Virus record (IMG/VR): IMGVR_UViG_2778261458_000007
Source of the DNA: a virus
Taxonomy: Duplodnaviria > Heunggongvirae > Uroviricota > Caudoviricetes
DNA length: 39,379 bases
Reading direction: 5' to 3' (one strand)
Shown in pieces: positions 1 to 38,270 of the stretch. Within the stretch, counting starts at the first letter, position 1. Every line of letters begins with the position of its first letter. The notes beneath the pieces are model-generated. The model made no database searches, was not told the origin of the DNA, and saw nothing but the letters and a program-made list of their open reading frames with translations. The position numbers and the translations under genes were made by a program.

Positions 1-1251
1 GTGCTTACCGATACAAAATTAAAAAACCTCAAGCCGCAGGACAAACTGTACAAGGTCTCCGATCGTGACGGGCTGTATGTAGCTGTGCTTACGTCAGGCA
101 CGGTCTCGTTTCGCTATGACTACCGTATCAACGGTCGCCGCGAAACACTGGTAATCGGGCAGTATGGGCGTGACGGTATCAGCCTGGCAGAAGCGCGAGA
201 AGAACTGATTGCTGCAAAGAAGCTGCTTAAAGCAGGCCAGTCACCGGCTGCGGCTAAACGTGACGGTATCAAAAAGATTCGTGGTGCCGAGACGTTTGCT
301 GTACATACCGACAGTTATATGAAACACGTCATCCTGGCTGACAGTACCCGCGCAATGAAACAGGCGGTGATCGACCGTGACATACTTCCGGTTCTTGGCA
401 ATAAAATGATGGCTGAAATTACCACATCGATGGTTCGTGATTTGTGTGACCGGATTGTCGAACGCGGTGGCCGGGCAACAGCAGTGCAGGCCAGGGAGAT
501 CATCAGTAGCGTATACCGTCACGCCAATGACCGTGGTCATGGTTTGTTTAATCCTGCGGCTGACATTAAACCTTCGTCTATCGCCATATTTAAACCAAGA
601 GAGCGAACACTGACACCAGAAGAAATTGGCCTGTTCTTCCGCACGCTGGATGCCATTGGTGCTATGGGCACTATGAAAATGGCTTTAAAGCTGGTGCTTA
701 TCACTATGGTTCGTAAAGGCGAATTCACCAACGCAACGTGGGATGAAATAGATTTTAAAAAATGGACATGGACCATTCCTTCAGACCGCATGAAGGGAAG
801 CCGGGCTCACGTTATTTACCTGCCTAAACAGGCTCAGGATATATTGGTCGGATTGCAGATGTGCGCTGGTGGAAGTGAATATCTGGTTCCTGGTCGTTAC
901 AATTTCCGGAAGCCATTATCTAATGCCGCGCTGAACTCTCTGATCGACAGAACGGTGAAAATAATAAATGAAGATGGTGAGCATATTCAGGGCTTCACCG
1001 TACACGATATGCGCCGTACAGCCAGTACATTGTTGCATGAGGCTAGTTATCCTTCAGACTGGATTGAAAAGGCTCTGGCACATGAGCAGAAAGGTGTGCG
1101 CGCCGTATATAACAAAGCGGAATACGCCAGACAGCGCGCCTACATGTTGCAGCAGTGGGCCGATATGATTGATTCCTGGATTGACGGGGAGCATACGGAT
1201 CTGATTCCGTTCTCCCCGTCGAAGTTTGAGAAGTGGATGGCGGGGGAATAA
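1..1251 (+). CDS. int: Tyrosine-type site-specific integrase (P4-like family)
   Basis: 416-aa ORF with GTG start at window edge; catalytic motifs HDMRRT (H-x-x-R) and VRAVYNKAEY (Tyr); N-terminal arm-binding-like region. Confidence 0.85.
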   Translation: MLTDTKLKNLKPQDKLYKVSDRDGLYVAVLTSGTVSFRYDYRINGRRETLVIGQYGRDGISLAEAREELIAAKKLLKAGQSPAAAKRDGIKKIRGAETFAVHTDSYMKHVILADSTRAMKQAVIDRDILPVLGNKMMAEITTSMVRDLCDRIVERGGRATAVQAREIISSVYRHANDRGHGLFNPAADIKPSSIAIFKPRERTLTPEEIGLFFRTLDAIGAMGTMKMALKLVLITMVRKGEFTNATWDEIDFKKWTWTIPSDRMKGSRAHVIYLPKQAQDILVGLQMCAGGSEYLVPGRYNFRKPLSNAALNSLIDRTVKIINEDGEHIQGFTVHDMRRTASTLLHEASYPSDWIEKALAHEQKGVRAVYNKAEYARQRAYMLQQWADMIDSWIDGEHTDLIPFSPSKFEKWMAGE

Positions 1252-1254
1252 CGT

Positions 1255-1449
1255 TTAATTATTCTGCTGATTTTCTTCCATCTCGGCTTCTGCTGCCAGT
1301 GATTCAATTTTATCTGTGAATATTGCTGACAGTGTTGCAAATTCAGCATCAGTGACAGCGGGAATTGGAACAAACCTGATCCCGCTGTGTGCAAGCATGT
1401 TTGCAGTTTCAAGGCATTTCCTTAAATCTGCTGGTGATGCCCTGTTCAT
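1255..1449 (-). CDS. Small hypothetical protein (64 aa)
   Basis: ATG at 1449-1447 overlaps the TGA stop of the upstream methylase (ATGA coupling); last gene of leftward early operon; convergent with int, 3 bp apart. Confidence 0.4.
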   Translation of the reverse strand: MNRASPADLRKCLETANMLAHSGIRFVPIPAVTDAEFATLSAIFTDKIESLAAEAEMEENQQNN

Positions 1450-2096
1450 GCTGCACGCTCCCGCCCCTGGTTGTCTGTTGGTGACAGCGGAGCATTGCTG
1501 AATGCATTTGTTAATCCGGCAATATACAACGCGTATCCAGGGTGTAGTTGCACTGCTGGGTCTTCGCACTGATTACCCCAAACATCGAAGCCATGAGCCG
1601 TTTGGCGGGCGAACAGTTCAATGCGAGAAACATCGCCTAACAATTGCACAAGTTTTTCACGAACGACATCTGGTTTTCTTGAATGCTCAAGCCGCGGTGC
1701 GGTAAATGACTGAACGATCCCTGCATTAATGCGCGGAGGTAGTTTTCCCTTAACTGCAAACAGGCAATCTTCACTATTGGCGCGAGTCATGTGTCCCATA
1801 CCCATAACCAGTTTATCTGGTTGTCGACTACCACATTTTATCCACGTGAAGCCCTTCATGGTCATCAGACGGAACCCCCAGGCTTCAACAACTTTTAGTG
1901 CTTCGAGTGGTTGTGTTGGCACCCACCACATGGCCAACAGACAGTTTTCATCGGCCAAATCCCACACAGGAAGGCGGCAGATATCCATCACACTCATAAC
2001 CGGATATTTAAAACCGGCACCGCGATTACCATCTGCGGCTTTGTCCCGGTATACCCAGGGTGGATCTGCATAGATTAGTGTGTATTTCTTAGTCAT
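1446..2096 (-). CDS. MT-A70 family DNA N6-adenine methyltransferase
   Basis: 216-aa ORF with DPPW catalytic motif (YADPPWVY) near N-terminus, typical of MT-A70/phage adenine methylases. Confidence 0.75.
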   Translation of the reverse strand: MTKKYTLIYADPPWVYRDKAADGNRGAGFKYPVMSVMDICRLPVWDLADENCLLAMWWVPTQPLEALKVVEAWGFRLMTMKGFTWIKCGSRQPDKLVMGMGHMTRANSEDCLFAVKGKLPPRINAGIVQSFTAPRLEHSRKPDVVREKLVQLLGDVSRIELFARQTAHGFDVWGNQCEDPAVQLHPGYALYIAGLTNAFSNAPLSPTDNQGRERAA

Positions 2097-2388
2097 AAAC
2101 CACCCCGCAACATCCTATACCGCTATAGTCTCCACGGCGAAGGCCGTTACCTTTTGTGATACATTGGTACCTGCGAACCGCGATCCTTGCACGCTCAACA
2201 TCACCAGAAGCAACATCCATACACTGAAGCCAAAGGTGAGCGGCAATGCGGAACTGCCCTTTTTTCTCTCTTTCAATCGCGCGTTTTTCGATCTCTATCG
2301 CCGCAGGAGTAACGGCGACAATCTTTGACGGACTGCGCATTGAAACCTTGTTCATGTGATATTTTTCAAGTCGGCTTAACTTTTTCAC
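2089..2388 (-). CDS. Hypothetical protein (99 aa)
   Basis: ORF with GTG start preceded by GAGGG; stop 2 bp before methylase start; no recognisable motif. Confidence 0.45.
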   Translation of the reverse strand: MKKLSRLEKYHMNKVSMRSPSKIVAVTPAAIEIEKRAIEREKKGQFRIAAHLWLQCMDVASGDVERARIAVRRYQCITKGNGLRRGDYSGIGCCGVVYD

Positions 2389-2497
2389 TTAATCCAACCC
2401 TCTCTGAAAATTAATGCCAGCAGATAAAGCCATGCTGAAACAGAGGCCAGGAATAAGTACCATCCTGACCATTTGCTCCAGTGCCTTAGCAGCACAC

Positions 2498-2746
2498 TCA
2501 TGCAGCGTTGCTCACAGGACGATATACACGTTGCTGAACAGGAGGCTTTTTACCCTGGAACTCTGCCGGGCTTGCTGCCTGACGTTCATCAAGCCAACGC
2601 TCAACTTCATCACGGTTCCATGCGCAGCGTTTGTCAGTGATATACCAGCGTTTAGGAAATTCCCCTGCGCGCTCCATGCGGTCGATAGTGCTCCATGACA
2701 GTGGCACCACCGCCAGGAGTTCCTTCTTACCTAATGCACCTTTCAT
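2498..2746 (-). CDS. AlpA-family helix-turn-helix regulator / excisionase-like protein
   Basis: 82-aa ORF; segment LAVVPLSWSTIDRMERAGEFPKR resembles AlpA/Xis-type HTH; RBS GAGAGGT upstream. Confidence 0.6.
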   Translation of the reverse strand: MKGALGKKELLAVVPLSWSTIDRMERAGEFPKRWYITDKRCAWNRDEVERWLDERQAASPAEFQGKKPPVQQRVYRPVSNAA

Positions 2747-2795
2747 AAATACCTCTCTTGGTTGCAGTGCGGCGCGCGTGGCGCCGCGGTGGTGG

Positions 2796-3737
2796 TTACA
2801 TAGATGTTTCGTTTAATTCTTCCCGACGAACGCTGTAAACGTCGGTGGCTTTTGCCAGCAGTTCGTCATCATCTGAAAGTTTTTGTGCAATGTATTTGTA
2901 AGCCTTATCCAGTTCGGAGACAGTGCTGTAATTCATCGCTGCGCTGGTAAAGGCCATCAGCATTTCTTCTGGATCACGGCTATCCGATTTACGCGTTTGC
3001 TCATCAGGCTTTTTCGCTGGTTTAGCGTTGATCAGACTGTTCATTCCCGCAGCAGTGGTCGTTTGCGGAGTAATGTCTCGCTCAACGCGCGGTGCCGTTT
3101 CCTGTAATTCGTCTGGGGTGTAGACGCCCATGATTACGTCAGGACAGTGCAGGCGAGACCAGCGTTTTGTCGCAAGGTATGCGAGTTGTTGTTTCGGATC
3201 ACTGGCCCAAAGTGTGGAGTTTCTTACCTGTGCTTGAGACAGCATTAACTCAAGCACTCGAGGTTGATCCTCGCCCTTCATGGTTGCCCATACGCGAACA
3301 CCGCAGCCTTCTTCGTCTTTTAGAGTCCAGCCTGGTGCGATATATGGATTGCCGTTTTTGGATGTTTTCTCAACAAACTTACCGATCACGCGTTCCCACG
3401 GCCCGAACCACTCGTAGTTGATGCGATCTTTTGTTGGCGACATCGTTGAGATAACTGCGTTTACTAATTGGGCTTCATAACCTAGCGTGCCGTTCACAAC
3501 ATGGGTTTTCTGAGCCACGGCAAACGGGTTCATTCCCCACTGCGCAGCCTGCATTGCCACGGCCATGCAATCAGCTGGTTTCCCGGCGAGGTGCGCCGGT
3601 ACCGTTACGCGGCTTTGCGCCATTACCTCGGCGAATTTCATCAGTTGGTTCAAGCCGTCTGGGCTGAAAATAGTTGCAGCAGTTCCAGCGATTGCTGTGT
3701 CTACTGGTGCGTTGATGTTTGCGATGTCGTTGCTCAT
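2796..3737 (-). CDS. recT: RecT-family single-strand annealing protein
   Basis: Sequence resembles RecT family; ATG at 3737 overlaps stop of upstream exonuclease gene (ATGA); the longer ORF start at 3764 is less likely. Confidence 0.8.
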   Translation of the reverse strand: MSNDIANINAPVDTAIAGTAATIFSPDGLNQLMKFAEVMAQSRVTVPAHLAGKPADCMAVAMQAAQWGMNPFAVAQKTHVVNGTLGYEAQLVNAVISTMSPTKDRINYEWFGPWERVIGKFVEKTSKNGNPYIAPGWTLKDEEGCGVRVWATMKGEDQPRVLELMLSQAQVRNSTLWASDPKQQLAYLATKRWSRLHCPDVIMGVYTPDELQETAPRVERDITPQTTTAAGMNSLINAKPAKKPDEQTRKSDSRDPEEMLMAFTSAAMNYSTVSELDKAYKYIAQKLSDDDELLAKATDVYSVRREELNETSM

Positions 3738-4555
3738 ATGTACATATCCTGTTTGCGTGCCCACTCAGGGCGTTTAATGATTTCCACACCGCCCCATTCA
3801 TCATTGATGCGGCATTCGTGATAGGTATTCAGATCCCGGCGGAACAGAGCGTGCCCGGCATCGACATCCTGCGCATCCAGCTCGAACACGCGTACCGGAT
3901 ACCGACCACAATCAATGCTTTCGCTCACGGCAAGAAAGAAAAAACCATGCGGCTGACCAGTAACCCTCATTGCGCCTTCGCGGTACATTGCGTCCTGCAC
4001 GTGGTAGCGGAATTCCTCGATGTGGCGTGCAAAACGGTCCATATCTGCAACCTTTTTCACGTCGACGATCACGTTGTGCTCGTTCAGCCATTTGTCTGGA
4101 CGAATTCGGCACAACTCACCCGTCTCTTCATCGTTCCAGTACATTGATGCTTCGCAGTAACCAGGTGCTTCCAACATCCAGCGTGCCGCCGGGTGAGCCA
4201 TTGCGCTATCACGCATCAGCTCCAGTTTCCGCCACTGCTCGGCATCAAGTACCGTAATCCCCATATCCGCCACATCACGAAGAAATGCCTCTTCGTCAGC
4301 TTTACCTTGTTTTGTCCGACGATCGAATTTCGGTGAAACGATGAAGCGTTTGTCAAACTCTCCAGGTTCCAGAAGCAGACAGTGCAGAGCAGTACCCATG
4401 TCCAGTGCAGACTTCTTCTCTTCGTCTTCCGGAGCAGCCTTCACCCATTTCAGAAGGGCAGGGTTCTTAGCCACCATATCTAGCTGCGACTTACTCACGC
4501 CGTCACCGGCGTGGTAGTCCTCGTTGCTGATATCGAAATAAACTCCCGGATTCAT
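3734..4555 (-). CDS. RecE-like PD-(D/E)XK exonuclease
   Basis: 273-aa ORF immediately upstream of and coupled to recT; acidic/Lys pattern (DVKKV, E..D) consistent with PD-(D/E)XK nuclease partner of RecT. Confidence 0.65.
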   Translation of the reverse strand: MNPGVYFDISNEDYHAGDGVSKSQLDMVAKNPALLKWVKAAPEDEEKKSALDMGTALHCLLLEPGEFDKRFIVSPKFDRRTKQGKADEEAFLRDVADMGITVLDAEQWRKLELMRDSAMAHPAARWMLEAPGYCEASMYWNDEETGELCRIRPDKWLNEHNVIVDVKKVADMDRFARHIEEFRYHVQDAMYREGAMRVTGQPHGFFFLAVSESIDCGRYPVRVFELDAQDVDAGHALFRRDLNTYHECRINDEWGGVEIIKRPEWARKQDMYI

Positions 4556-4851
4556 GCCGCGTCCCTCTGCCCATCAAGCTGATCAGCCAGATCCCAGCGG
4601 GCGATAATTGCCATTGCCTCGCGCCGGTAGGCATCCATTAGTTCTTCGAACTCAGGGCTGTCTTTAGCGGCCTCCAGTACTTCCTGGCGAACGCCTTTAA
4701 CTGTTACAACGTCGAAAGTTGATGCCAGTTGATGAAGCCGGATACTCTCAATCAGTTCAACTTGTCGGTCATATAGCTGTTCTGACAGACGGTAGTCCTT
4801 GTCGAATGCCAGCATGATTTTTTGAAGATTTTTCTGCTGATTAACGTTCAT
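4552..4851 (-). CDS. Hypothetical early protein (100 aa)
   Basis: ORF starting at ATG 4851 (MNVNQQ), 2 bp after stop of preceding small gene; overlaps exonuclease start. Confidence 0.45.
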   Translation of the reverse strand: MNVNQQKNLQKIMLAFDKDYRLSEQLYDRQVELIESIRLHQLASTFDVVTVKGVRQEVLEAAKDSPEFEELMDAYRREAMAIIARWDLADQLDGQRDAA

Positions 4852-4853
4852 TA

Positions 4854-5006
4854 TCAGCCCTCCCATATCTCGTTATCGTTGGCCACATCGCGAGCTTCTT
4901 TGCTGACGAAAGCCCACTTAATGCCTTCCTGTAAGGTGCGGAACTTCCAGCTCATGAATCCGCATGCAGTAACGCAGTACCAACCGTTGATGATTTTCCA
5001 CTGCAT
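4854..5006 (-). CDS. Small hypothetical protein (50 aa), first gene of leftward early operon
   Basis: Not in ORF track (below 60 aa); ATG at 5006 with GAGGT 9 nt upstream; translation MQWKIINGWYCVTACGF...; directly downstream of leftward promoter. Confidence 0.35.
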   Translation of the reverse strand: MQWKIINGWYCVTACGFMSWKFRTLQEGIKWAFVSKEARDVANDNEIWEG

Positions 5007-5024: not shown

Positions 5025-5041
5025 GTTACCGTTGAGGTAAT
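5025..5041. promoter_or_regulatory. Operator site 1 (OL-proximal): GTTACCGTTGAGGTAAT
   Basis: 17-bp palindrome NTTACC-N5-GGTAAN overlapping -10 and +1 of leftward early promoter. Confidence 0.6.
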
Positions 5042-5068
5042 AATTATGCGTATATGGTTTGATGTCAA
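5040..5068 (-). promoter_or_regulatory. Leftward early promoter (PL-like)
   Basis: On minus strand -35 TTGACA (5068-5063), 17-bp spacer, -10 AATTAT (5045-5040); flanked by operator sites 1 and 2. Confidence 0.5.
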
Positions 5069-5086
5069 TAGATATGAGTTAAAAAA

Positions 5087-5103
5087 ATTACCCGTTAGGT
5101 AAT
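5087..5103. promoter_or_regulatory. Operator site 2 (OL-distal): ATTACCCGTTAGGTAAT
   Basis: Perfect half-sites ATTACC/GGTAAT, between repressor terminator and leftward promoter -35. Confidence 0.6.
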
Positions 5104-5159: not shown

Positions 5160-5744
5160 TTATTGTTTGTTTTTTTCGTTCTGGTTGATGACAAATTCAA
5201 TGTAACTTTCGATCTTTGCTTTCTCGGTTTCGGGTAACAATGCGTAGCGCGAGCGATCATAGTTGATGGTCGCAGGGTCGTGCGGGTGAATCAGTAATTC
5301 ATAGCCGTGACGCCCGAATGCGGATGCAACATTCTCCAGGGTGGAAATGGAAACGCTGACCTCATTGTTTAACAGGCGGCTGATTGTCACCTGGGCTACG
5401 CCGGATGCGCGGTGAAGTTTTCCCTGTGTTGAAAGGTCGCGGCTTTCGCTCATCCAGCGTTCCAGGTTGTGAGCCGCCAGCTGGCCAATGTCGCTTGGGC
5501 CGACAGGCTGAAAACCTTCCTGAGAAAGCGAGCGATCGATATCAAGCCAGTTACGGGGTTTATTGGCGGCAGCTTCAATTTTTCGTGCAACCTGGTCGCC
5601 GATAACCTTCTTGCCAAGAGCCCAGCGGTTTACCAGATTTGCCTGAGTTCCAAGTTTTTCAGCCATCCGCGTCTGAACACCATTGAATTCACGGTCGATC
5701 AAGTCGTTGAGATTTTGCCTGCGGACGTCCTGGATACTTTTCAT
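5160..5744 (-). CDS. CI-like prophage repressor (tandem HTH, no recognisable S24 peptidase domain)
   Basis: 194-aa ORF divergent from cro-like gene across an operator cluster; two HTH-like segments (QTRMAEKLGTQANLVNRW and GVAQVTISRLLNNE); no Ala-Gly/Ser-Lys cleavage motifs seen. Confidence 0.7.
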   Translation of the reverse strand: MKSIQDVRRQNLNDLIDREFNGVQTRMAEKLGTQANLVNRWALGKKVIGDQVARKIEAAANKPRNWLDIDRSLSQEGFQPVGPSDIGQLAAHNLERWMSESRDLSTQGKLHRASGVAQVTISRLLNNEVSVSISTLENVASAFGRHGYELLIHPHDPATINYDRSRYALLPETEKAKIESYIEFVINQNEKNKQ

Positions 5745-5798: not shown

Positions 5799-5815
5799 AT
5801 TACCCAACAGGTAAA
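5799..5815. promoter_or_regulatory. Operator site 3 (OR cluster): ATTACCCAACAGGTAAA
   Basis: In divergent repressor/cro intergenic region. Confidence 0.6.
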
Positions 5816-5832
5816 TGCACCTCATGGGTAAC
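5816..5832. promoter_or_regulatory. Operator site 4 (OR cluster, degenerate): TGCACCTCATGGGTAAC
   Basis: Abuts site 3; right half conserved, left half degenerate; spacer TCATG identical to site 8. Confidence 0.4.
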
Positions 5833-5844
5833 TATCCTTGATTT

Positions 5845-5873
5845 TTGTTACCTTATAGGTGAATATTTATTAT
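5845..5873 (+). promoter_or_regulatory. Rightward early promoter (PR-like)
   Basis: -35 TTGTTA (5845-5850), 17-bp spacer containing operator site 5, -10 TATTAT (5868-5873); cro-like ATG at 5899. Confidence 0.5.
5847..5863. promoter_or_regulatory. Operator site 5 (OR cluster): GTTACCTTATAGGTGAA
   Basis: Lies in the spacer between -35 TTGTTA and -10 TATTAT of the rightward cro promoter. Confidence 0.55.
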
Positions 5874-5898: not shown

Positions 5899-6129
5899 AT
5901 GAGCGATAACGGACATTTCGATTTCAAAAAGCACTGGCTTGCACTTACTCCGGATGAGCGTGAAGCCTTCGCACAGGAAGCCGGAACGACGAGTCACTAT
6001 ATCCAGACTCACTTAACAGGTAAGCGCAAAATGCCAGGTAAGGTATTGATGGATGGGCTTTTTAAAGCCTGTAAATCAAGACAATGGCTGCGCTCAAAAG
6101 CAGAACTGGCATACTTCTTCTACTCATGA
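5899..6129 (+). CDS. Cro-like DNA-binding protein
   Basis: 76-aa ORF divergent from repressor; first gene of rightward early operon; followed by intrinsic terminator. Confidence 0.55.
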   Translation: MSDNGHFDFKKHWLALTPDEREAFAQEAGTTSHYIQTHLTGKRKMPGKVLMDGLFKACKSRQWLRSKAELAYFFYS

Positions 6130-6151
6130 TATCCAGCCACAACCCTCTGTA

Positions 6152-6173
6152 GACCGCCATCCGGCGGTCTTTT
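6152..6173 (+). terminator. Intrinsic terminator after cro-like gene
   Basis: Hairpin GACCGCC-ATCC-GGCGGTC followed by TTTT. Confidence 0.65.
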
Positions 6174-6183: not shown

Positions 6184-6200
6184 CGTACCTCAAAGGTAAT
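6184..6200. promoter_or_regulatory. Operator site 6: CGTACCTCAAAGGTAAT
   Basis: Immediately after cro terminator, upstream of gene at 6280. Confidence 0.5.
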
Positions 6201-6279
6201 AAAAAACCAAATATGGTTGATCTTTTTTTTGTGTCAGCACAAAATAACCGTAATCCCAATACTAATAACAGGGCTTACC

Positions 6280-6480
6280 ATGGAAATCATTACACGTATT
6301 GATGCCGCAAAGCGCGGACTTAAACGCTACTACACCGGAAAACCATGTAAGCACGGACATGACAGTGAACGCTGGGTTTACAACGGACACTGTGTTGAGT
6401 GCACCATGGAGTCAAACCGTCGCATCAGGGCAGAGATTAAGCAGATCATGATTAATTCCTCCCCACAACACTCAAGCTGA
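6280..6480 (+). CDS. Small Cys/His-rich protein (cII-equivalent position)
   Basis: Start at ATG 6280 (MEIITRIDAAKRG); C-x-H-G-H ... C-V-E-C pattern suggests zinc binding; the ORF-track start at 6217 is a TTG. Confidence 0.45.
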   Translation: MEIITRIDAAKRGLKRYYTGKPCKHGHDSERWVYNGHCVECTMESNRRIRAEIKQIMINSSPQHSS

Positions 6481-6495: not shown

Positions 6496-7311
6496 ATGAG
6501 CAGACATGCAACAGATTGGGCCTGGGAGACAGATCCAGGTAGCTCATCATTAAAGCTCATACTGCTCTCGATGGCTGACAGAGCCGATGAATATAACCTC
6601 TGCTACCCAAGCATAGAACGCCTCGTTAAAGACACTTGCCTGAATAAAAAAACCGTGCAGGCCGGGCTTATATCGCTCATGAAAATGGGGCTTATTTCAG
6701 ATACCGGAGAGAGAAAGGGAGCGACGAAAAGAGTGCGGGTTTTCTCTCTTAATATAACAAAAAACGGGAACATTAAAGGTAACCGGGAAGGGTGTAATGA
6801 ACCCGAAAACGGTAATGTTACCGAAAACGGGAATATACCCAAAAACGGGATGTTGAATGATCCCAAAAACGGGATGTTGAATGATCCCAAAAACGGGATC
6901 CAGAACCAGTCATATAACCAGTCATTTAACCAAGAGAGGGAGAGCAGGACAAAAAACGGGGATTCTGTGCATCATGACCCCGGCGCAAACAACGCCGTGA
7001 TGAATAACTTTGTTCCTCCTGGTGGGCCAGGGCAATTAGGAAAATTTGTCATGCATGAACAATGGCAGCCATCAGATGACTTTCTTCGGAAAAGCTCATT
7101 GCAGGGGATCTACCTGGACAGTCTGCCAACGGCACAGGAACTTGCAGAGTTCAGAATTTACTGGATGGCTGAGGGTAAGGCATACCATCAGGCACAGTGG
7201 GAGCAGAAGCTGGCAAGGCGGCTGCAGATTAGCAGACAGAAGCAATCAACATTACCTGATAACAACGTTCCGCACTGGAACAGCCCTGAAGCATGGGAGG
7301 ATTTCTTGTGA
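6496..7311 (+). CDS. Replication initiation protein (lambda O-like, iterons embedded)
   Basis: 271-aa ORF with RBS GGAG; N-terminal HTH-like domain; internal AAAACGGGA iteron array coding KNG repeats; followed by coupled P-like gene. Confidence 0.7.
   Translation: MSRHATDWAWETDPGSSSLKLILLSMADRADEYNLCYPSIERLVKDTCLNKKTVQAGLISLMKMGLISDTGERKGATKRVRVFSLNITKNGNIKGNREGCNEPENGNVTENGNIPKNGMLNDPKNGMLNDPKNGIQNQSYNQSFNQERESRTKNGDSVHHDPGANNAVMNNFVPPGGPGQLGKFVMHEQWQPSDDFLRKSSLQGIYLDSLPTAQELAEFRIYWMAEGKAYHQAQWEQKLARRLQISRQKQSTLPDNNVPHWNSPEAWEDFL
6759..6961. repeat. Iteron array (AAAACGG[G/T]A, about 7 copies) within O-like gene, putative replication origin
   Basis: Cores at 6761, 6806, 6824, 6842, 6866, 6890, 6953; three copies are exact 24-bp tandem units CCCAAAAACGGGATGTTGAATGAT (6838-6861, 6862-6885, partial 6886-6903). 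Confidence 0.6.
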
Positions 7312-8118: not shown

Positions 8119-8129
8119 ACGTCTAAATG

Positions 8130-30068: not shown

Positions 30069-30077
30069 GGAACAACA

Positions 30078-30506: not shown

Positions 30507-30507
30507 A

Positions 30508-31112: not shown

Positions 31113-31137
31113 ATAAGCCACCTAAACTGCGTAAAAT

Positions 31138-32001
31138 TTATTTCCTGCCACTTCTGTAGTATATGTTGCGACCATTTTTGGTCACATTAACAACATGACC
31201 CTTTGTTTCTACTTTGTTATTTGTTGCCTTATATACTTCAAAGTCAAACCATGATATATGACTTATTTCGTCTATAGATACCATAATTTCTAGACCTTGA
31301 ACTTTCTTTTTGCTTATCCCTTTTATCGCAGCACTGCGCTTAATTTGGATTTCACCTGGGTAAGCGTTTGTAAATGTAACAGATAAATTTTCTTTGTTTC
31401 TGTACCCTGACATTAAAGGAACAAAAGATATGTGTTGGTGTGGCCCTTGATTTTCCGTTGGCTCACCAGAACCATTTATTATTCCAACGTATACTTTATT
31501 TGATGATAAAGTAATTAACATTGGTTTCTTAGGATCTGATTCGATTGCATCAAGCAATAGCAAATCTAAAGAACCCTGGGAGTACGTTTTTCGCAATACC
31601 CTAGCTTTCATTGCCTCTGATATTTTGTCATAAATATCACGTTTATAAAAACAACCTAAAAGAAGATCTTTTAGCCAAACAAAAGATACATAACACAAAG
31701 AGAAGCAAATTGATGTGACTGACAGAAGAAGTAGCCACATGTAAATTCTATCTGTTTCTGGTTTTGACGTTACATTAAAAGTTTCCACCATATCGTGAAC
31801 TAGGTGAAAATCAGGATATTTATATTTTATAAATGAGGCAATTATTACCGAAGCAACAAGGCAATATGTACCTAATGCAGCTACTTTCATATAAAGAAGC
31901 TGGCCTTCATGTCGGTATAAACGGAAATAATGATACTGGTTAGCGGTTATCATAATATAACCACTAACCAGAATGGGGATAATTAGAAGAGCTAACAACA
32001 C
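31138..32001 (-). CDS. Membrane protein of unknown function (three N-terminal TM segments plus soluble domain)
   Basis: 287-aa ORF; GTG start overlapping stop of upstream 69-aa gene, RBS AAGGA; hydrophobic stretches at roughly residues 1-20, 40-60, 85-105; AT-rich. Confidence 0.5.
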   Translation of the reverse strand: MLLALLIIPILVSGYIMITANQYHYFRLYRHEGQLLYMKVAALGTYCLVASVIIASFIKYKYPDFHLVHDMVETFNVTSKPETDRIYMWLLLLSVTSICFSLCYVSFVWLKDLLLGCFYKRDIYDKISEAMKARVLRKTYSQGSLDLLLLDAIESDPKKPMLITLSSNKVYVGIINGSGEPTENQGPHQHISFVPLMSGYRNKENLSVTFTNAYPGEIQIKRSAAIKGISKKKVQGLEIMVSIDEISHISWFDFEVYKATNNKVETKGHVVNVTKNGRNIYYRSGRK

Positions 32002-32210
32002 TATTTCCTTACAGTGGCAAGATCCTGTTTAACGATTGCAGCAGCGAGACGACGCATCTCCTTAACCTCAGGAAGCTCAGAAATTTGCTGTGATGAGATA
32101 TACACTCCACCACGCTTGTTAACCTGCGCTGACGCCGGAACTTCTGCATTTTTTGCCTGAGGGCTGGGTGCATTATCCCTCGTTTTTGTACGAGCGAACC
32201 AAAATCCCAT
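32001..32210 (-). CDS. Small basic protein (69 aa), first gene of accessory operon
   Basis: Strong RBS AGGAGGAGAT; directly downstream of operator-overlapped promoter. Confidence 0.45.
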   Translation of the reverse strand: MGFWFARTKTRDNAPSPQAKNAEVPASAQVNKRGGVYISSQQISELPEVKEMRRLAAAIVKQDLATVRK

Positions 32211-32235
32211 ATCTCCTCCTCATGTAAACACATGG

Positions 32236-32252
32236 TTTACCTTTAAGGTAAT
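32236..32252. promoter_or_regulatory. Operator site 11 (accessory operon promoter): TTTACCTTTAAGGTAAT
   Basis: Overlaps -10 and +1 of leftward promoter TTGCAG-17-TACTAT. Confidence 0.55.
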
Positions 32253-32323: not shown

Positions 32324-33034
32324 TCAGAAGAACCCTGCCTTGTCGTTGATGTACTCCGCGTGTGTCTGGATATCACGCAGGCATTTGCTCACACCGACGA
32401 TGTAGCAGAACATGGTGGTCAGCTCCGCCGCTGCGCCCGATACGTCGTGCCCGTCGTCCTGTAACTGGTTCAGCAGATTCATCAGCAGTGAGTTCTCTGT
32501 CAGGCCGAGAACACCAGACGGCGAATGAATCAGGCTGCGGTAGCCGGGCTTCAGTGGGGCGCTGTAGGTTTTGTTCTCTACCTTCATTGCCTGCATCACT
32601 GCTGACGCCGTGGCGTTGGCTACCTGGTCGGCAACCATCTTTATGCGTTCTTCCTGCGGGAGCGAGTTTTTAATGTAGCGTCCGGTGCGGCGGATCTGAG
32701 GAAGAACCTCACCTGTAACCCATTTACGAAAGCGGTAGGGTATAGTGCCTGGTGTCACTGCGTCGCGGCAGCGTAGGATCAGTGTGTAGAGGCCTGACTC
32801 GGAGATGATGTTGATCTCTTTTACTCGGCTGTCAAAAATTGCACGATGTTCATGCCCTATGTTGAACATAGACCTTTCATCATCATCCAGTTTTTCAAGT
32901 GCTTGGGTGACGTTTTGGATACGCAGCGCACTACAAACGTCTTGGGCTACAAACCATGGTTGGCCATCGATAATGATGGAACGGATAGGGTTAACAGATT
33001 CAAATTTGAAGATGGCAGTTTGAGCATTAGCCAT
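32324..33034 (-). CDS. Bro-N domain antirepressor-like protein
   Basis: N-terminal region FVAQDVCSALRIQN...ISESGLYTLILRCRD...FRKWVTGEVLPQIRRTG matches Bro-N-type antirepressors; start ATG 33034 with GGAG upstream. Confidence 0.65.
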   Translation of the reverse strand: MANAQTAIFKFESVNPIRSIIIDGQPWFVAQDVCSALRIQNVTQALEKLDDDERSMFNIGHEHRAIFDSRVKEINIISESGLYTLILRCRDAVTPGTIPYRFRKWVTGEVLPQIRRTGRYIKNSLPQEERIKMVADQVANATASAVMQAMKVENKTYSAPLKPGYRSLIHSPSGVLGLTENSLLMNLLNQLQDDGHDVSGAAAELTTMFCYIVGVSKCLRDIQTHAEYINDKAGFF

Positions 33035-33190
33035 GGTGGTTATCTCCACTTAGTGATTTTAATCACCACCGCAACGCCAATTACTGGTGGTGAACTGGAC
33101 AAGGTTGGCGTACCGGCCTAAGTGGTACCGGCGTCCTTTCGGACCCCTGCCCAGCCCACCATAATTCGGATATAGCTGTGCTTAACGCAT

Positions 33191-33213
33191 AAAAAAACCA
33201 CGTCTGGCGTGGT
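33191..33213 (-). terminator. Intrinsic terminator inside leader upstream of Bro-N gene
   Basis: Hairpin ACCACG-CCAGA-CGTGGT followed on minus strand by T-run. Confidence 0.55.
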
Positions 33214-33302
33214 ATGCGCCACTTAGTAACCCGGGACGCCAATCCCGGCACTGGATTTTGCCAGTGCCTGATTACTATGGCACAAGAGGAGTGCGATGTA
33301 AA

Positions 33303-33319
33303 TTTACCTCAAAGGTAAA
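33303..33319. promoter_or_regulatory. Operator site 12 (antirepressor leader promoter): TTTACCTCAAAGGTAAA
   Basis: Overlaps -10 of leftward promoter TTGCAA-17-TATATT. Confidence 0.55.
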
Positions 33320-33349: not shown

Positions 33350-33607
33350 TTATCTGGTTTGTTTTCGTAATTGTTCGGCACAATAGTCGAGATGTGTTTG
33401 CAGCTCCTGCATAGACATCTGTGAGCTGGTGACGTAGTTAATCAGTGCAGTCAGTTCGGCAAGTGGGCCATCGACATTAAATCCATCCTTATCGAGATCC
33501 CGGAGTAATTTCATCAAGTGCGATCCCTCCACCAGTGATCTGACGCCTCCCGGCGTGTGAATCCTTTCGGTAAATCCGTCTTCCAGTGGATAGTGATACT
33601 GCTGCAT
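33350..33607 (-). CDS. Small antirepressor-like protein (homolog of Bro-N protein C-terminal domain), LexA-box associated
   Basis: About 45 percent identity by eye to residues about 150-215 of the Bro-N protein (shared LAELT, QTH..Y); start at second ATG 33607 with GGAG RBS; LexA box 23 bp upstream. Confidence 0.5.
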   Translation of the reverse strand: MQQYHYPLEDGFTERIHTPGGVRSLVEGSHLMKLLRDLDKDGFNVDGPLAELTALINYVTSSQMSMQELQTHLDYCAEQLRKQTR

Positions 33608-33629
33608 CTTAATCTTCTCCATGCAATAA

Positions 33630-33645
33630 CTGTATATTTATACAG
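33630..33645. promoter_or_regulatory. LexA (SOS) box CTGTATATTTATACAG
   Basis: CTGT-N8-ACAG with AT-rich centre; extended match AACTGTATATTTATACAGTA to consensus TACTGTATATATATACAGTA; 23 bp upstream of small antirepressor-like gene. Confidence 0.75.
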
Positions 33646-33683
33646 TAGCAAATAATTTGTTTGCTATCCAGCACGTTTTGCAA

Positions 33684-33700
33684 ATTACCTGAAAGGTAAT
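33684..33700. promoter_or_regulatory. Operator site 13: ATTACCTGAAAGGTAAT (perfect palindrome)
   Basis: In divergent region between LexA-boxed small gene and tailspike gene; preceded by TTGCAA. Confidence 0.6.
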
Positions 33701-33803
33701 ATCTATTCATATTCACAGTCTTTCTATCCATATGTGGTTTTTCAGGTAATAGAATAACCAGATATGCGGCGCAACGGGTGCTGCGACTATCTGGAGATTT
33801 AAC

Positions 33804-36077
33804 ATGACGGTCTCAACCGAAGTTGACCACAACGAATACACCGGTAACGGCGCTACGACATCATTTCCGTATACCTTCCGTATTTTCAAAAAATCCGACC
33901 TGGTTGTTCAGGTGTCTGACCTGAACGGGAACGTAACAGAATTGGTTCTGGATACCGGTTATGCGGTAACTGGGGCGGGCACTTATAGTGGCGGTTCTGT
34001 TGTTCTGCCGTCTCCGCTTGCTGCTGGCTGGCGAATTACGATAGATCGTGTGCTTGATGTAGTGCAGGAGACAGATCTTCGCAATCAGGGAAAATTTTTC
34101 CCCGAAGTGCATGAAGATGCTTTTGACTACCTGACGATGCTGATCCAGCAATGTTTTGGGTGGTTCAGACGTGCATTGATGAAACCATCTTTGCTTGCAA
34201 AATATTACGATGCAAAGCAAAACAGAATTTCTAACCTTGCAGATCCATCACTTGAGCAGGACGCTGTAAATAATCGCTCAATGCGTAATTATGTCGATGC
34301 TGCAATCGCCGGGGTTGTTGGTGGTTTTGGTTGGTTTATTCAGTATGGTTCTGGGGCAGTATACAGAACGTTCCAGGATAAAATGCGTGACATATACAGT
34401 GTCAAGGATTTTGGTGCTATAGGTGACGGTGTGATCAATGATACTGCTGCGATCGCATATGCGTCTGTGAATCAGATGATAGATCTTGGGCGCGGGATTT
34501 ACAAAGTGGACTCCTTGTCACTTGCCCTTGGGGCAATATCGTCTGGAGCTACAATAACCCTTAGCGGACGTCACGAAAATATTATCTCTCCTCTTTTTGC
34601 TGGTGAGTTAATAGGTAATCTTACCATACAGGGGGACTCGCCTGTGACATTAAGTGTCATATCCGCCAGTATTTCATTCTCTAGCACCTTCCAGGTAGAA
34701 TATTATGCAGATGATTTTCGCTCAGCTAAGTACCAGCTTGTAGACGTTCTGTTAAGTGGGGCAGTACAGGTCGGCAATATGCTGCTAATAAGGGCTGACC
34801 AACCAGAGTTGTCAGGCTGTTTCGAAGTGGTTGGTGTTCCTGCTGAAAATACTGCTCGGGTATTGATGCTTGCGCAAGGTTCGCTAGATATAAGTAGTTT
34901 TACCGGAACTGCTAAGGTTCTTACAACAGTTCTTCAGTTTTCCAATATTACCCCGATTGATGTGTCTGGTGGTAATCTGAAACTGGTTAATATCGGCATT
35001 CTTGGTGCTTGTTATCCAGTCAAAAATGGTTCACGTTCAAATGTGTACGATCCTCGTGGAAGCAATGGTGTATCGGGTATTGTTGCGAGAAATGGCGGTA
35101 TTGTGCTCGGCGTAGATTCTGGAATATCAGGAGTTTCAGGGACTCAGCTTGTCGGCGTCGATAGTGGGGAAATTGACTGGACAGGGTGTTTCGTATCTTG
35201 CGGTGGTCGAAATGGAATATCCGCATCATTAGGTAAACTAACCTTCGCAAGTGGCGTAGCCACGCAAAACTTGCTGGACAATGTGATAACGCAGGATCAG
35301 AGTTTCGGTTTTGCAACATCATCAATTTCTGCACATGCAGGCAGGAACGGTTATATCTCTTCAACTAACTCCACCTGCAATTTGTCAGGCAGCAACTCTC
35401 AACAAAACGGATTTATGGATCCTACCAATGGTAATGGTGCCAGTGCTTCCAGTGGAAATCTAACAGTCATTGGATGTCAAATAAAAAACAATGCTAATGC
35501 TGGCATAATAGGGATTGGAAGTTCTGACATTCGTGGGACAGGAATAAATGTCCAATGGAATTCATATGGAGTATTAATGGACACTGCTTCTCATGCATTG
35601 GTTACAGGGATAGTTAATAACAATTCTGTCACCGATTTACTGGCACGTAACCGGGGTAAAATAGAAGCTATTAATGTAACGCACACGACGTCAAAACCAC
35701 AAGTTAACCTTACAGACGGAACTGGAGCATTGGTTCAGAATACATCCGGAATTGATGATTTTCGTACCTCTGGCGGGCTGGAAGTTGCCGGAGGTGGAGT
35801 TATAAAAAAGGTTATCCGAATGCGAGTTACAGGTGTCGATTTTCCAACTGTTCCTGCTGGTAGCCAGCAATCGGTATCGGTATCAGTGCCTGGCGTCATA
35901 TCGTCTTATGAAAACGTAGTAATAGTGCAGAGAGACTCTACTAATAACAGGTCTGGATTGATGTATGAAGCAATTGTATCTTCAGATAATACTGTGCTTA
36001 TAACTTGTAATAACTTCTCTACATCAGAGATAGACCCTCCTGCTGAAAACTTCAATCTGGTTGTTTTTTCTTTCTAA
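33804..36077 (+). CDS. Tailspike protein (N-terminal particle-binding domain plus beta-helix receptor-binding domain)
   Basis: 757-aa ORF; N-terminus MTVSTEVDHNEYTGNGATTSFPYTF typical of podovirus tailspikes; VKDFGAIGDGVINDTAAI motif typical of pectate-lyase-like beta-helix. Confidence 0.8.
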   Translation: MTVSTEVDHNEYTGNGATTSFPYTFRIFKKSDLVVQVSDLNGNVTELVLDTGYAVTGAGTYSGGSVVLPSPLAAGWRITIDRVLDVVQETDLRNQGKFFPEVHEDAFDYLTMLIQQCFGWFRRALMKPSLLAKYYDAKQNRISNLADPSLEQDAVNNRSMRNYVDAAIAGVVGGFGWFIQYGSGAVYRTFQDKMRDIYSVKDFGAIGDGVINDTAAIAYASVNQMIDLGRGIYKVDSLSLALGAISSGATITLSGRHENIISPLFAGELIGNLTIQGDSPVTLSVISASISFSSTFQVEYYADDFRSAKYQLVDVLLSGAVQVGNMLLIRADQPELSGCFEVVGVPAENTARVLMLAQGSLDISSFTGTAKVLTTVLQFSNITPIDVSGGNLKLVNIGILGACYPVKNGSRSNVYDPRGSNGVSGIVARNGGIVLGVDSGISGVSGTQLVGVDSGEIDWTGCFVSCGGRNGISASLGKLTFASGVATQNLLDNVITQDQSFGFATSSISAHAGRNGYISSTNSTCNLSGSNSQQNGFMDPTNGNGASASSGNLTVIGCQIKNNANAGIIGIGSSDIRGTGINVQWNSYGVLMDTASHALVTGIVNNNSVTDLLARNRGKIEAINVTHTTSKPQVNLTDGTGALVQNTSGIDDFRTSGGLEVAGGGVIKKVIRMRVTGVDFPTVPAGSQQSVSVSVPGVISSYENVVIVQRDSTNNRSGLMYEAIVSSDNTVLITCNNFSTSEIDPPAENFNLVVFSF

Positions 36078-36289
36078 TGGTATCGCTGAAATTCGTTTCC
36101 AGTCATGTAAAGTTGAATGCTAAGAAATGTTGGTTTCATGAACAATCATCCGCTGAGTATCTATTATGCGATTTATTAATCGCAATGATACGCAATCACA
36201 ATAAATGGTAACGATTATTCATAAATGGTTTGTTGTGTATAATGACTCTCATCTTTCAGCCGAGGCATCATGCACAACAAACGGTGTTT

Positions 36290-36697
36290 ATGATGAATAC
36301 AACGTTTACGACAGATTCTATAAATCAAGGTTTAAGCCTTAGTGCACTGGCGTCAGTATTGGTTGGTGTTCCGACAGAGGTGGCGCTCGGTGCTTTGTCA
36401 GGAGCGGTAATTTTTGTTACCTCTGCTGTTGAGTATCCCATTCATCGCCGGATTCTCCTATCTATGCTCAGCTTCCTCTGCGGCCTTCTCTTTTACAAAC
36501 CTACAGCATCCATCCTTATCGGTGTAGCCAGCCTGATCCCTACCATCACGCAGGACTCTTTCGAGAAAGGGATCGTCTTCTCTGCTGGCGCATTTGTGTC
36601 ATCAATTGTCGCCGTGCGAATTGGTATATGGCTTTATCACCGTTCCGATAATCCACGAGAGTTAATTCCGGGGAGAAAAGACGATGGCAACGCATGA
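36290..36697 (+). CDS. Holin-like membrane protein
   Basis: Adjacent Met codons (MMNTTF) then three to four hydrophobic segments; first gene of lysis cassette; the ORF-track start at 36230 is TTG and unlikely. Confidence 0.5.
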   Translation: MMNTTFTTDSINQGLSLSALASVLVGVPTEVALGALSGAVIFVTSAVEYPIHRRILLSMLSFLCGLLFYKPTASILIGVASLIPTITQDSFEKGIVFSAGAFVSSIVAVRIGIWLYHRSDNPRELIPGRKDDGNA

Positions 36698-36992
36698 GCT
36701 TTTTTTGCTTATCACCAATGCAGTTATTTGTACTGGCATAGCAATTCGTGTTGTCACATTCCGGCGTAACGGATCTCAACACCGAAGATGGGGAGGTTGG
36801 CTTGCTTATTTTCTGATTGTTGCTGCGGCCAGTATTCCAGTTCGTGCTGTCTATGCAATCTGGCTACGCACGCCAATGGCTGTGGATTTATCTGAGATCA
36901 TTATCAACGCTGTCATGCTTGCTGCGGTTCTTAAAACTCGCGGTAACGTCGTTCAGATTTTCAAAATAACGAGGTCTAAACATGGAGATTAA
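36684..36992 (+). CDS. Second holin-like membrane protein
   Basis: 102-aa ORF with three hydrophobic segments, overlapping neighbours in lysis cassette. Confidence 0.5.
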
Positions 36993-37611
36993 ACAATTCC
37001 AGCGAGCTGCTGGTATTAGCGAGGCGCTGGCCGCTCGCTGGTTCTCGCATATAACTTCTGCGATGAAAGAGTTTGGTATCAGCAAAGCAGAAGATCAGGC
37101 AATGTTTATTGCTCAAGTCGGGCATGAGTCTGTGGGCTTCACCAGGTTGCAGGAGAATTTCAACTACAGTGTCAGCGGACTGGCTAACTTCGTTCGGGCT
37201 GGGCGTCTCACTCAGTGGCAGGCTAATGCACTTGGTCGCCGTGCTGGTGAACCACCATTGCCACTCGAGCGCCAGCGCGCGATCGCAAATCTGGTGTACA
37301 GCAAACGCATGGGGAACAATGCCCCTGGTGATGGCTGGAATTACCGAGGGCGCGGACTTATCCAGATTACCGGTTTGAATAACTATCGTGATTGCGGAAA
37401 CGGTCTGAAGGTTGACCTGCTGGAGAGTCCTGAACTGCTGGCGCAGGACGAATATGCGGCCCGTAGCGCGGCGTGGTTCTTCGTTAGCAAAGGATGCATG
37501 AAGTATACCGGCGATATTGCACGTGTAACTCTGATTATCAATGGTGGCCGGAACGGCATCGACGACCGGCGCGCGCGGTACATCACTGCCAGTAAGGTGC
37601 TGGCGGTATGA
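36982..37611 (+). CDS. Endolysin, glycoside hydrolase family 19-like
   Basis: Motifs FIAQVGHES and GRGLIQITG typical of GH19 phage endolysins; RBS GAGGT. Confidence 0.75.
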
Positions 37612-38090
37612 TCTGGGCATTCGTAAAAGCATACTGGAAACAGTTGCTTATCGTGGCGGTGCCTGCTGTTCTGGTCATATCAGGAGTTGTTGCCTGGAAT
37701 GTACACGGTAGCCGTCAGTACGACGCCGGGTATGCGCAGGCGAAAGAAGACCGCAAAGCCGAAGAAGAAAAAGTTCGTCAGTACTACGAACAGGAGAAAG
37801 CGACCAATGAACGTGAAGCTCAGCAGAGGATCGACCAGGCGCGCAATGATGCTCTTGATGCTGCCGCTCGCGCTGGCCGGTTGCAGCAACAACTCTTTGC
37901 CATCCGTGAGCAGCTCAGGCAGTATAACGCCATTGTCGGCGCTGGGACGTCAGCCGCAGACACCGGAGTTTTGCTTGCCGACGTGCTCAGCAAATCTCTC
38001 GAGAGAAACAGACAACTGGCAGAGTATGCTGACCGGGCAGCCGAAGCCGGAAGAGTCTGCGAAAAACAGTACGACACACTGACCAGATAG
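37608..38090 (+). CDS. i-spanin (Rz-like)
   Basis: N-terminal TM segment then charged coiled-coil region; start overlaps endolysin stop (ATGA). Confidence 0.6.
37807..38082 (+). CDS. o-spanin (Rz1-like lipoprotein) embedded in +1 frame of i-spanin gene
   Basis: ATG 37807 with AGGAGAAAG RBS; signal peptide with lipobox LAGC; Pro/Ser-rich mature part; entirely within Rz-like gene. Confidence 0.55.
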   Translation: MNVKLSRGSTRRAMMLLMLPLALAGCSNNSLPSVSSSGSITPLSALGRQPQTPEFCLPTCSANLSRETDNWQSMLTGQPKPEESAKNSTTH

Positions 38091-38171
38091 CATGGCATTT
38101 TTCATGGTACTGATTTCCGGTGACGGTATATAAAACGGTACAGTGAAAATCACGTTTCGGAAAGTTGTTAT

Positions 38172-38208
38172 CACTCAATTATTTATGCATGCCGTAAATA
38201 ATTGAGTG
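38172..38208. other. 37-bp near-perfect palindrome (14-bp arms CACTCAATTATTTA / TAAATAATTGAGTG)
   Basis: Inverted repeat with 9-nt loop TGCATGCCG between spanin stop and bidirectional terminator, near expected prophage-host junction. Confidence 0.5.
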
Positions 38209-38240
38209 GAATGATTTTGATCCCTGCACTATGAATGAAC

Positions 38241-38270
38241 AAAACCCTCTGTTACTACAGAGGGTTTTTT
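38241..38270. terminator. Bidirectional intrinsic terminator at prophage right end
   Basis: Hairpin CCCTCTGT-TACT-ACAGAGGG flanked by AAAA upstream and TTTTTT downstream. Confidence 0.7.

Follow-up and report, generated by a model that had tools for sequence, protein, structure and literature searches.

An apparently intact Uetakevirus prophage at Escherichia coli guaA and the conserved promoter- and terminator-linked elements of its late transcription

The 39,379-nucleotide stretch of viral DNA analyzed here (IMG/VR record IMGVR_UViG_2778261458_000007; hereafter the window, at its full length) is filled from position 1 to approximately 38218 by a temperate podovirus prophage, apparently an intact member of the phiV10/epsilon15 type (genus Uetakevirus) residing in the 3' end of Escherichia coli guaA. 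The element adds a new mosaic phage to an established genus and is, in itself, ordinary; its late transcription shares with that of four other members of a well-used group a set of conserved elements, linked to promoters and terminators, for which no known regulator accounts. Taking identity, lysogeny, induction, transcription units and late expression as one whole, we consider the following account very probable: a dispersed-operator repressor, Rep, would hold the lysogenic state until an SOS-controlled antirepressor removes it; since no phage RNA polymerase is encoded, the host enzyme would transcribe the whole element as a chain of terminator-bounded units; and late expression would most likely need a phage-encoded factor besides the loss of Rep. 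The positions of all features are collected in Table 1.

Relatives were sought by megablast of the two window halves against 50,697 phage records. The best matching members of Uetakevirus, which align with approximately 75 to 78% of the window at 96 to 97.5% identity, are vB_EcoP_PAS61 (90% of the first half and 60% of the second covered, 96 to 97.5% identity), phiv142-3 (89% and 68%, identity approximately 97% and 96%), and HEMP4 (81% and 70%, approximately 97% and 96%). ZX5 and TL-2011b cover 83 to 84% of the first half and 40 to 51% of the second (approximately 95 to 97% identity), phiV10 covers 48% and 66% (approximately 95 to 98%), and epsilon15, Tyrion, and PAT1 match only parts of both halves, at 75 to 82% identity. 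By this megablast-based estimate the similarity exceeds the approximately 70% genome-wide nucleotide similarity that defines a genus; with about three-quarters of the window aligned at approximately 97%, we estimate that it would pass the customary threshold for a genus and stay short of that for a species. The gene order is that of the annotated phiV10, PAS61, epsilon15, Tyrion, and PAT1 records and of the PGAP-annotated prophage of E. coli PCN033, and this common order is accompanied by the other signatures of the genus, namely, the GP7 capsid, the gp10 staple, and a guaA-targeting integrase. A previous sequence-only reading, made without database searches, had pointed to a resemblance to epsilon15 and phiV10; this was correct to the level of genus, and no unrelated phage group provided the best megablast matches. 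Its description of the element as mosaic was equally sound: the replication, nin-like, cargo, and tailspike segments vary among relatives, and mosaicism is shown by the P gene, which is absent from epsilon15 and PAT1.

The left end of the window coincides exactly with the integrase coding sequence (416 aa, as phiV10p31). Because the window opens at the int start codon and attP/attL lies approximately 190 bp upstream of int in relatives (PMC9782041), a spacing also found for attL in the annotated prophage of E. coli PCN033, attL falls outside the window. On the right, alignment with E. coli genomes free of the prophage begins at position 38201 and runs through the guaA 3' end, yfgI, and yfgH; of 5,426 complete E. 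coli genomes, 5,422 matched this flank. At approximately 38203 to 38218 lies the att core, attgagtgg(g)aatgatt, which is one G shorter in the window than the published core attgagtgggaatgatt (PMC9782041). The end of the element had earlier been put at 38270; the true end lies about 50 bp before it, the intervening 38219 to 38270 being the tail and terminator of host guaA. The lysis-gene side of the guaA junction was also matched in 552 of the 5,426 genomes (approximately 10%), and such guaA prophages are therefore common.

Homologues of both proteins of the SPC32H-type repressor/antirepressor pair were found, and the switch is, on this homology, of the known SPC32H Rep/Ant type. Rep, which is without a self-cleaving domain, would be expected from its homologue to bind TTACC-N5-GGTAA. 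With at most one mismatch, this motif occurs 13 times in the window against 0.59 expected, a number reached in none of 100 shuffles, and all copies are intergenic; Rep could thus act at PL, PR, the leftward site after cro, the post-replication promoter, the front of terS (the small terminase gene), and the virion, tailspike, cargo, and antirepressor units. Matching positions are occupied in phiV10 (14 sites) and epsilon15 (15 sites), and the epsilon15 GenBank record marks seven of its sites as repressor binding sites, a statement taken from that annotation alone. The dispersed operator family proposed from the sequence is therefore real and reaches the late units, and it had already been annotated in epsilon15; given that record and the SPC32H homology, neither the operators nor the switch are new. 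In ZX5, a close relative, overexpression of the repressor blocked lytic growth and abolished free phage, and overexpression of the antirepressor lowered lysogeny (PMC9782041). The promoter-like site after cro points leftward through cro to the repressor gene, from what we infer to be the position of an establishment promoter.

Upon induction, the small LexA-controlled Ant would, by homology, inactivate Rep. A second antirepressor, fused to a Bro-N domain and 40% identical at its C terminus to the small Ant, would be restrained by a C4 antisense RNA of the P1 type, the leader of which is isrK-like. Both RNAs score well above their Rfam gathering thresholds, and the c4-a1b1 target element falls slightly below its own (42.6 against 46.7 bits). 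A C4 RNA with target sites upstream of a Bro-N ant gene is the arrangement of the P1/P7 immI region, and the two RNAs are predicted to form a second, RNA-based lock on induction.

The absence of phage RNA polymerase and of N- and Q-type genes, asserted by the sequence-only reading, is upheld for all open reading frames (ORFs) scanned: N and Q families gave no match in Pfam, PHROGs, or NCBIfam, and no ORF matched an RNA polymerase, all large ORFs being assigned to virion proteins. Matches to boxA-like/nut sites in the window stayed at chance level, and Rfam returned nothing beyond the tRNA, isrK, and C4. A homologue of the P1 late activator Lpa was sought and rejected (best phmmer E value against all window ORFs, 1.8; hhalign probability against the family of the 112-aa protein at 10200 to 10538, 0.1%). 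The further claim that no late activator can be recognized overlooks three conserved regulator-like genes: a PerC-family gene, an AlpA-family gene, and the phrog_536 gene before terS, which encodes the 112-aa protein. Together with the cro-like gene and orf66, these are kept in all five phages that we aligned (the window, phiV10, epsilon15, Tyrion, and PAT1). The sequence-only reading also proposed gating of host-polymerase transcription by operators; the operators stand, and on their own they leave the late-promoter box and the terminators described below unexplained. Since terminators split the units, the late promoters carry a box, and regulator-like genes are conserved, operators are not the whole story, and it is an overstatement that late transcription is gated by them alone.

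Alignment of the regions upstream of the virion, tailspike, lysis, and post-replication genes of the five phages revealed three conserved islands within otherwise diverged sequence: the operator, a box, and a -10-like hexamer. The box, (A)ACCATAT(A/G)TGGTT, is nearly palindromic and in some lysis promoters forms a perfect 14-bp palindrome; the hexamer (TATAAT, TAATAA, or TAATAG) follows 7 nucleotides after it, and no TTGACA match is found at the -35 position of the late promoters. Activator-dependent phage late promoters typically have this layout, as in P1, with a -10 element, no -35, and an upstream repeat. Exact copies of the 11-mer CATATGTGGTT begin at 14034 and 33729, and copies with a single mismatch are found at 6205(-), 8177, and 33756(-); all of these places are intergenic. 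Copies with two mismatches are not above chance in number, so that only the best copies and the conservation across phages carry weight. The spacer of PL also contains the box, as does the leftward site that follows cro. Variants overlapped by an operator were seen at 8174 to 8193 and, at that leftward site, at 6205 to 6218 (-). DnaA, IHF, and CRP sites were considered and none fits, as judged by eye against their consensus sequences.

In front of terS, the terminator and two operator-like sites are kept in all five phages, and neither a box nor any other promoter-like element is visible. With no promoter visible behind the conserved terminator, expression of terS and terL (the large terminase gene) probably relies on polymerases that enter from the early operon.

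These observations bear directly on the model of the sequence-only reading, in which there is no late regulator and ordinary host promoters are held by Rep only and all fire once Rep is inactivated, with timing set by promoter strength and gene dosage. Operators indeed stand at every unit, including those of terS, the virion genes, the tailspike, and ant; the searches for N, Q, Lpa, and other known families of late regulators found none; and in ZX5, overexpressing the repressor reduced the transcripts of endolysin and holin by more than 99.9% (PMC9782041). Against the model, the late promoters show the conserved box instead of a -35 match, a consensus scan gave no sigma-70-type site for the terS, virion, and tailspike starts, a strong terminator (-14.5 kcal/mol, z -4.8) precedes terS, and the late operators lie 40 to 52 bp upstream of the box, which is not the classic occluding position. 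We regard this model as possible, if rather unlikely.

Alternatively, the box promoters may be activated by another conserved early protein, encoded by the PerC-family gene (2089 to 2388), orf66 (6280 to 6480), or the cro-like gene. PerC-family proteins carry the annotation of transcriptional activators, all three genes accompany the box in all five phages, and with the box also placed in the PL spacer and after cro, one protein could shut the early and open the late promoters. Co-occurrence is the sole evidence for this assignment, binding of the box by any of the candidates is putative, and orf66 is only 52 to 54% identical between groups, yet the box is invariant; we hold this reading to be unlikely.

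Several points weigh against the account that we favor, with its phage-encoded late factor: (i) the lysis unit of the window has a degenerate box (two mismatches) and no good operator; (ii) given the distance between operator and box, simple occlusion by Rep is not evident at the late promoters; (iii) the box could be the site of a host factor or an unusual core-promoter element needing no phage activator; (iv) searches of the accessible literature returned no transcript mapping for the genus, and the promoters, starts, and terminator efficiencies given here are all predictions; and (v) with attL not within the window, the completeness of the prophage is judged by comparison with relatives only.

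A further candidate for the factor is the 112-aa product of the phrog_536 gene. In five Uetakeviruses this gene is always the last of the early genes and borders terS, even where the genes that precede it vary. A structural model built with 53 diverse homologues (predicted local distance difference test score [pLDDT], 91.6) shows the beta-alpha-alpha fold of a ribbon-helix-helix (RHH) protein; a model built with 20 close homologues reached a pLDDT of only 57 and was unusable. The C-terminal half carries conserved cysteines and, as a zinc ribbon, weakly resembles the polymerase-binding TraR/YbiI family, with marginal support from a PDB profile search (E value, approximately 0.035), an hhalign probability of 77% against TraR, and no Pfam match; across the 53 family members, a Pfam scan gave only scattered weak RHH or zinc-ribbon matches.

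A 12-bp perfect palindrome, GTGACATGTCAC, overlaps the stop codon of the RHH gene. The window has exactly three copies of it, where 0.06 would be expected, and each of them, read in the direction of transcription, follows a stop codon and precedes an intrinsic terminator. Relatives, including epsilon15, have it at the same three places. Among homologue loci in viral contigs, 58 of 71 carry GTGAC-NN-GTCAC on or beside the stop codon, in several flanking contexts and with a varied central dinucleotide, and an intrinsic terminator usually comes next; ZF40 has the palindrome and N15 the variant GTGACTGGTCAC. Since the palindrome travels with the RHH gene through these differing contexts, it is probably the site that the protein binds.

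On these grounds, the RHH protein could be the missing late switch, binding GTGAC-NN-GTCAC beside terminators and either allowing read-through into terS-terL or serving as a roadblock or insulator at operon ends. Its constant place before terS, its fold, and the position of the palindromes would all suit such a role, and yet homologues in ZF40, N15, and lambdoid prophages are found together with a Q-type antiterminator and at a distance from the late genes (in lambdoid loci, upstream of ninB). Moreover, antisense transcription would result from read-through at copies 2 and 3, the TraR similarity is marginal, and binding of the palindrome is putative. We consider this role improbable; as a general late activator, the protein was dropped altogether because of the Q-type antiterminators beside its homologues. 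With comparably low expectation, we suggest that Uetakeviruses may use an undescribed form of late control, in which a box replacing the -35 element would be read by a phage factor and the RHH protein would act at GTGAC-NN-GTCAC to modulate terminators, including the one before terS.

Table 1. Positions of the features of the window and the evidence for their assignment
Feature	Position	Strand	Evidence or remark
Tyrosine integrase, P4-like architecture	1-1251	+	Pfam Arm-DNA-bind_3, Phage_int_M, Phage_integrase; 99% identical to phiV10 int
Leftward early operon	1255-5006	-	Pfam, PHROGs; synteny with phiV10 and epsilon15
DUF1382	1255-1449	-	Pfam/PHROGs
MT-A70 methylase	1446-2096	-	Pfam/PHROGs
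PerC-family activator	2089-2388	-	PF06069 E=7e-7; phrog_868 E=1e-60
AlpA/Xis-like	2498-2746	-	Pfam/PHROGs
RecT	2796-3764	-	PF03837 E=2.2e-44
PD-(D/E)XK nuclease (PDDEXK-like DUF3799)	3734-4555	-	Pfam
orf104 and orf50	within 1255-5006	-	Members of leftward early operon
Operators at PL	5026-5040, 5088-5102		
PL-like promoter TTGACA-17-AATTAT	5068-5040	-	Flanked by two operators (region 5026-5102)
Rep terminator	5139-5120	-	Hairpin -18.7 kcal/mol
Rep repressor	5160-5744	-	Two helix-turn-helix regions (HTH_3), no peptidase domain; PDB 5D50_A SPC32H Repressor E=4e-42
OR/PR region, PR-like promoter TTGTTA-17-TATTAT	5800-5873	+	
Operators at PR	5800-5814, 5848-5862; weaker 5817-5831		
Cro-like gene	5899-6129	+	phrog_35
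Terminator after cro	6151-6170	+	-15 kcal/mol, z -5.1
Operator after cro terminator	6185-6199		
Leftward promoter-like site, PRE-like	6185-6237	-	Operator 6185-6199, box 6205-6218, CTGACA-16-CATATT
orf66, Cys/His-rich, cII position	6280-6480	+	
Replication initiator, HTH_36 + DnaT domain	6496-7311	+	Pfam, NCBIfam
Iterons	6750-6902		Within initiator gene; repeat family D1-D3
Lambda-P-family loader	7293/7308-8093	+	PF06992 E=1.5e-56
Weak terminator-like hairpin and T-run after P, then promoter region	8099-8207	+	Box 8177-8187; kept in five phages
Operators before post-replication genes	8131-8145, 8193-8207		
Nin-like variable accessory genes	8211-10207	+	DUF1064, orf149, DUF7739, DUF551, ASCH-like
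RHH + C-terminal zinc-ribbon protein, 112 aa	10200-10538	+	epsilon15 gp49 / phiV10p55 / phrog_536 "transcriptional regulator"
Palindrome copy 1	10535-10546		Overlaps RHH gene stop codon
orf70, 70 aa	10556-10768	+	phrog_1541; insertion between palindrome and pre-terS terminator
Intrinsic terminator before terS	10774-10791	+	
Operator-like sites before terS	10811-10825, 10829-10843		Second covers terS ribosome-binding site and start codon
terS (probable ATG 10843) and terL	10843-12911	+	Homology; Terminase_2 begins at residue 45 of long ORF
Bidirectional hairpin	12962-12981	.	Convergent junction of terL and leftward gene
Palindrome copy 2	12986-12997		terL/leftward-gene convergent junction
Sf6 gp66/N4 gp49-family gene	13002-13379	-	Pfam PF13876
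tRNA-Arg(TCT)	13578-13654	-	ARAGORN, Rfam; reads rare AGA codon
Operator before virion operon	13978-13992		
Virion-operon promoter region	13978-14057	+	Operator 13978-13992, box 14031-14044, TAATAA 14052-14057, no -35
Virion operon	14083-30491	+	Pfam, PHROGs, PDB
gp3-like	First gene of virion operon	+	
Portal, T7 gp8 family	14304-15983	+	PF12236 E=1.6e-187
Bbp19-like, then protease	Between portal and capsid gene	+	
GP7 capsid (epsilon15 family)	16983-17975	+	
Bbp16 cement, gp10 staple	Between capsid and adaptor genes	+	
Adaptor, 202 aa	19181-19789	+	"Connector Protein" chain of PDB 8CK1, E=3.9e-26
Nozzle, 823 aa	19789-22260	+	"Tail Nozzle" chain of PDB 8CK1, E=1.5e-217
Internal proteins	22260-23263	+	Including one T7_gp14-family
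Transglycosylase-type 837-aa protein, 600-aa and 824-aa virion proteins, orf137	Downstream of 23263, to 30491	+	
Palindrome copy 3	30495-30506		Abuts virion-operon terminator
Virion-operon terminator	30507-30524	+	
Low-GC cargo genes (170, 287, 69 aa)	30609-32251	-	GC 0.34-0.39; operator 32237-32251 upstream
Operator before cargo genes	32237-32251		
immI-like antirepressor module	32324-33318	-	
Bro-N antirepressor	ATG ~33034, ends 32324	-	Bro-N, phrog_130
C4 antisense RNA, P1-type	33083-33166	-	Rfam 66 bits; gathering threshold 45
isrK-like Hfq-binding RNA	33191-33267	-	Rfam 67.7 bits
Operator before antirepressor	33304-33318		
Small antirepressor Ant, 85 aa	33353-33607 (probable start 33607; region 33350-33647)	-	PDB 5D50_E anti-repressor E=1.6e-46
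LexA box AACTGTATATTTATACAGTA	33628-33647		Near-consensus, 1 mismatch; just upstream of ant
Operator before tailspike	33685-33699		
Tailspike promoter region	33685-33755	+	Operator 33685-33699, box 33726-33739, -10-like 33747-33755
Tailspike gene	33804-36077	+	
Lysis promoter region	36220-36243	+	Box-like CATAAATGGTT 36220-36230, TATAAT 36238-36243
Lysis unit	36220-38090	+	Holin-like membrane protein, holin, GH19 endolysin, Rz/Rz1
attR core	38201-38218	.	Alignment of prophage-free genomes; PMC9782041
Host guaA tail + terminator	38219-38270		After attR
Host yfgI	38309-38848	-	
Host yfgH	38864-39379	-	

The modules named by the sequence-only reading were checked with Pfam, PHROGs, and PDB. Its T7-like structural set is borne out for the portal, the adaptor, the nozzle, and the gp14-family protein and fails for the head, where capsid, cement, staple, and protease are of the epsilon15/BPP-1 type; "T7-like" therefore fits the portal, tail, and core but not the head. 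A PDB sequence search returned nothing for the 824-aa virion protein or for orf66. The tRNA-Arg gene is placed between terL and the portal operon and is annotated in the PCN033 prophage as well.

The separate tailspike was rightly recognized. Approximately 21% of its length, at the N terminus, is common to relatives, and the receptor-binding part differs. The cargo genes gave no match in Pfam or PADLOC and no near match in the phage collection, and their PHROGs are of unknown function; at this position, relatives carry a YafO toxin or other genes. The same combination of cargo and tailspike was found in no complete E. coli genome of the collection, and it is the tailspike and cargo region that sets the window copy apart from its relatives. 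Between the tailspike and lysis genes (36078 to 36292) there is no O-antigen acetylase or serotype-conversion gene, unlike in phiV10, PAS61, Tyrion, PAT1, and epsilon15.

In the early region, the P4-type integrase was confirmed by its Pfam domains (arm-binding N-terminal, central, and catalytic), and the phiV10 orthologue is annotated as cd00801 INT_P4. The lambda-type O/P replication module with embedded iterons holds for P and for the iterons, which are five to six 18/24-bp repeats; membership of the initiator in the lambda O family is ruled out, as it matches only the HTH_36 and DnaT DNA-binding domains. As for the proposed Rac-like RecET module, RecT is a genuine match, and the nuclease matches the PDDEXK-like DUF3799, its counterparts in relatives being annotated as exonuclease VIII or RecE-like. 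The two are separate, overlapping ORFs in the window (2796 to 4555, -); the phiV10 record has a single RecE-RecT fusion, and that of PAS61 has two pieces labeled "RecT." The small orf70 is absent from phiV10, PAS61, epsilon15, Tyrion, and PAT1.

To conclude, related prophages occupy guaA in about one-tenth of complete E. coli genomes and several members have been isolated and sequenced, so that the element itself adds little beyond the correction of its module identities on record. To this group belong epsilon15, which serves as a structural model, and phiV10, on which O157 reporter phages are built, and the conserved late elements offer phage engineers a concrete, testable start.

The closest comparison is with phiV10, PAS61, phiv142-3, ZX5, HEMP4, and TL-2011b, which share with the window the gene order, the guaA att site, integrase, Rep, operators, terminase, virion, and lysis genes; most shared proteins are 96 to 100% identical to those of phiV10 or PAS61. 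The window differs from this group in its nin-like genes (DUF7739 and a DUF551 variant), in the extra orf70 before terS, in the receptor-binding part of the tailspike, in the unique low-GC cargo at 30609 to 32210, and in lacking the acetylase gene. The type member, epsilon15, is syntenic with the window, but only parts align, at 75 to 78% nucleotide identity. Operator consensus and positions are the same, as is the succession of gp49 homologue, terminator, and operators before terS; on the other hand, epsilon15 has its own Rep (42% identical to that of the window), other replication genes without lambda P, and O-antigen conversion genes, and it is without the Bro-N/C4 module.

The switch of SPC32H has a homologous Rep and small Ant, and in the window a LexA box lies beside ant; to this the window adds the second, Bro-N-fused antirepressor under presumed C4/isrK RNA control, and SOS control and binding are here predicted from homology. 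With the early region of lambda, the element has in common the divergent repressor and cro genes, the terminator after cro, the P-family loader, and iterons in the initiator gene, but it is without the N, Q, CII, and O families, and its repressor is not of the LexA-like self-cleaving kind. T7 (Autographiviridae) is alike in the gp8-family portal, the gp11/gp12-type adaptor and nozzle, and the gp14-family internal protein; the window, by contrast, is temperate, encodes no phage RNA polymerase, and has a capsid of the epsilon15 GP7 type with protease, Bbp16, and gp10. P1, finally, is similar in its many dispersed repressor operators, in the C4 antisense RNA upstream of ant, in a regulator gene directly before the small terminase gene, and in late promoters where an inverted repeat takes the place of the -35 and the -10 element is kept. 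The window Rep is unrelated to C1, the window operator is a symmetric palindrome, the box differs in sequence from the P1 -22 element, and there is no Lpa homologue; the resemblance is functional only.

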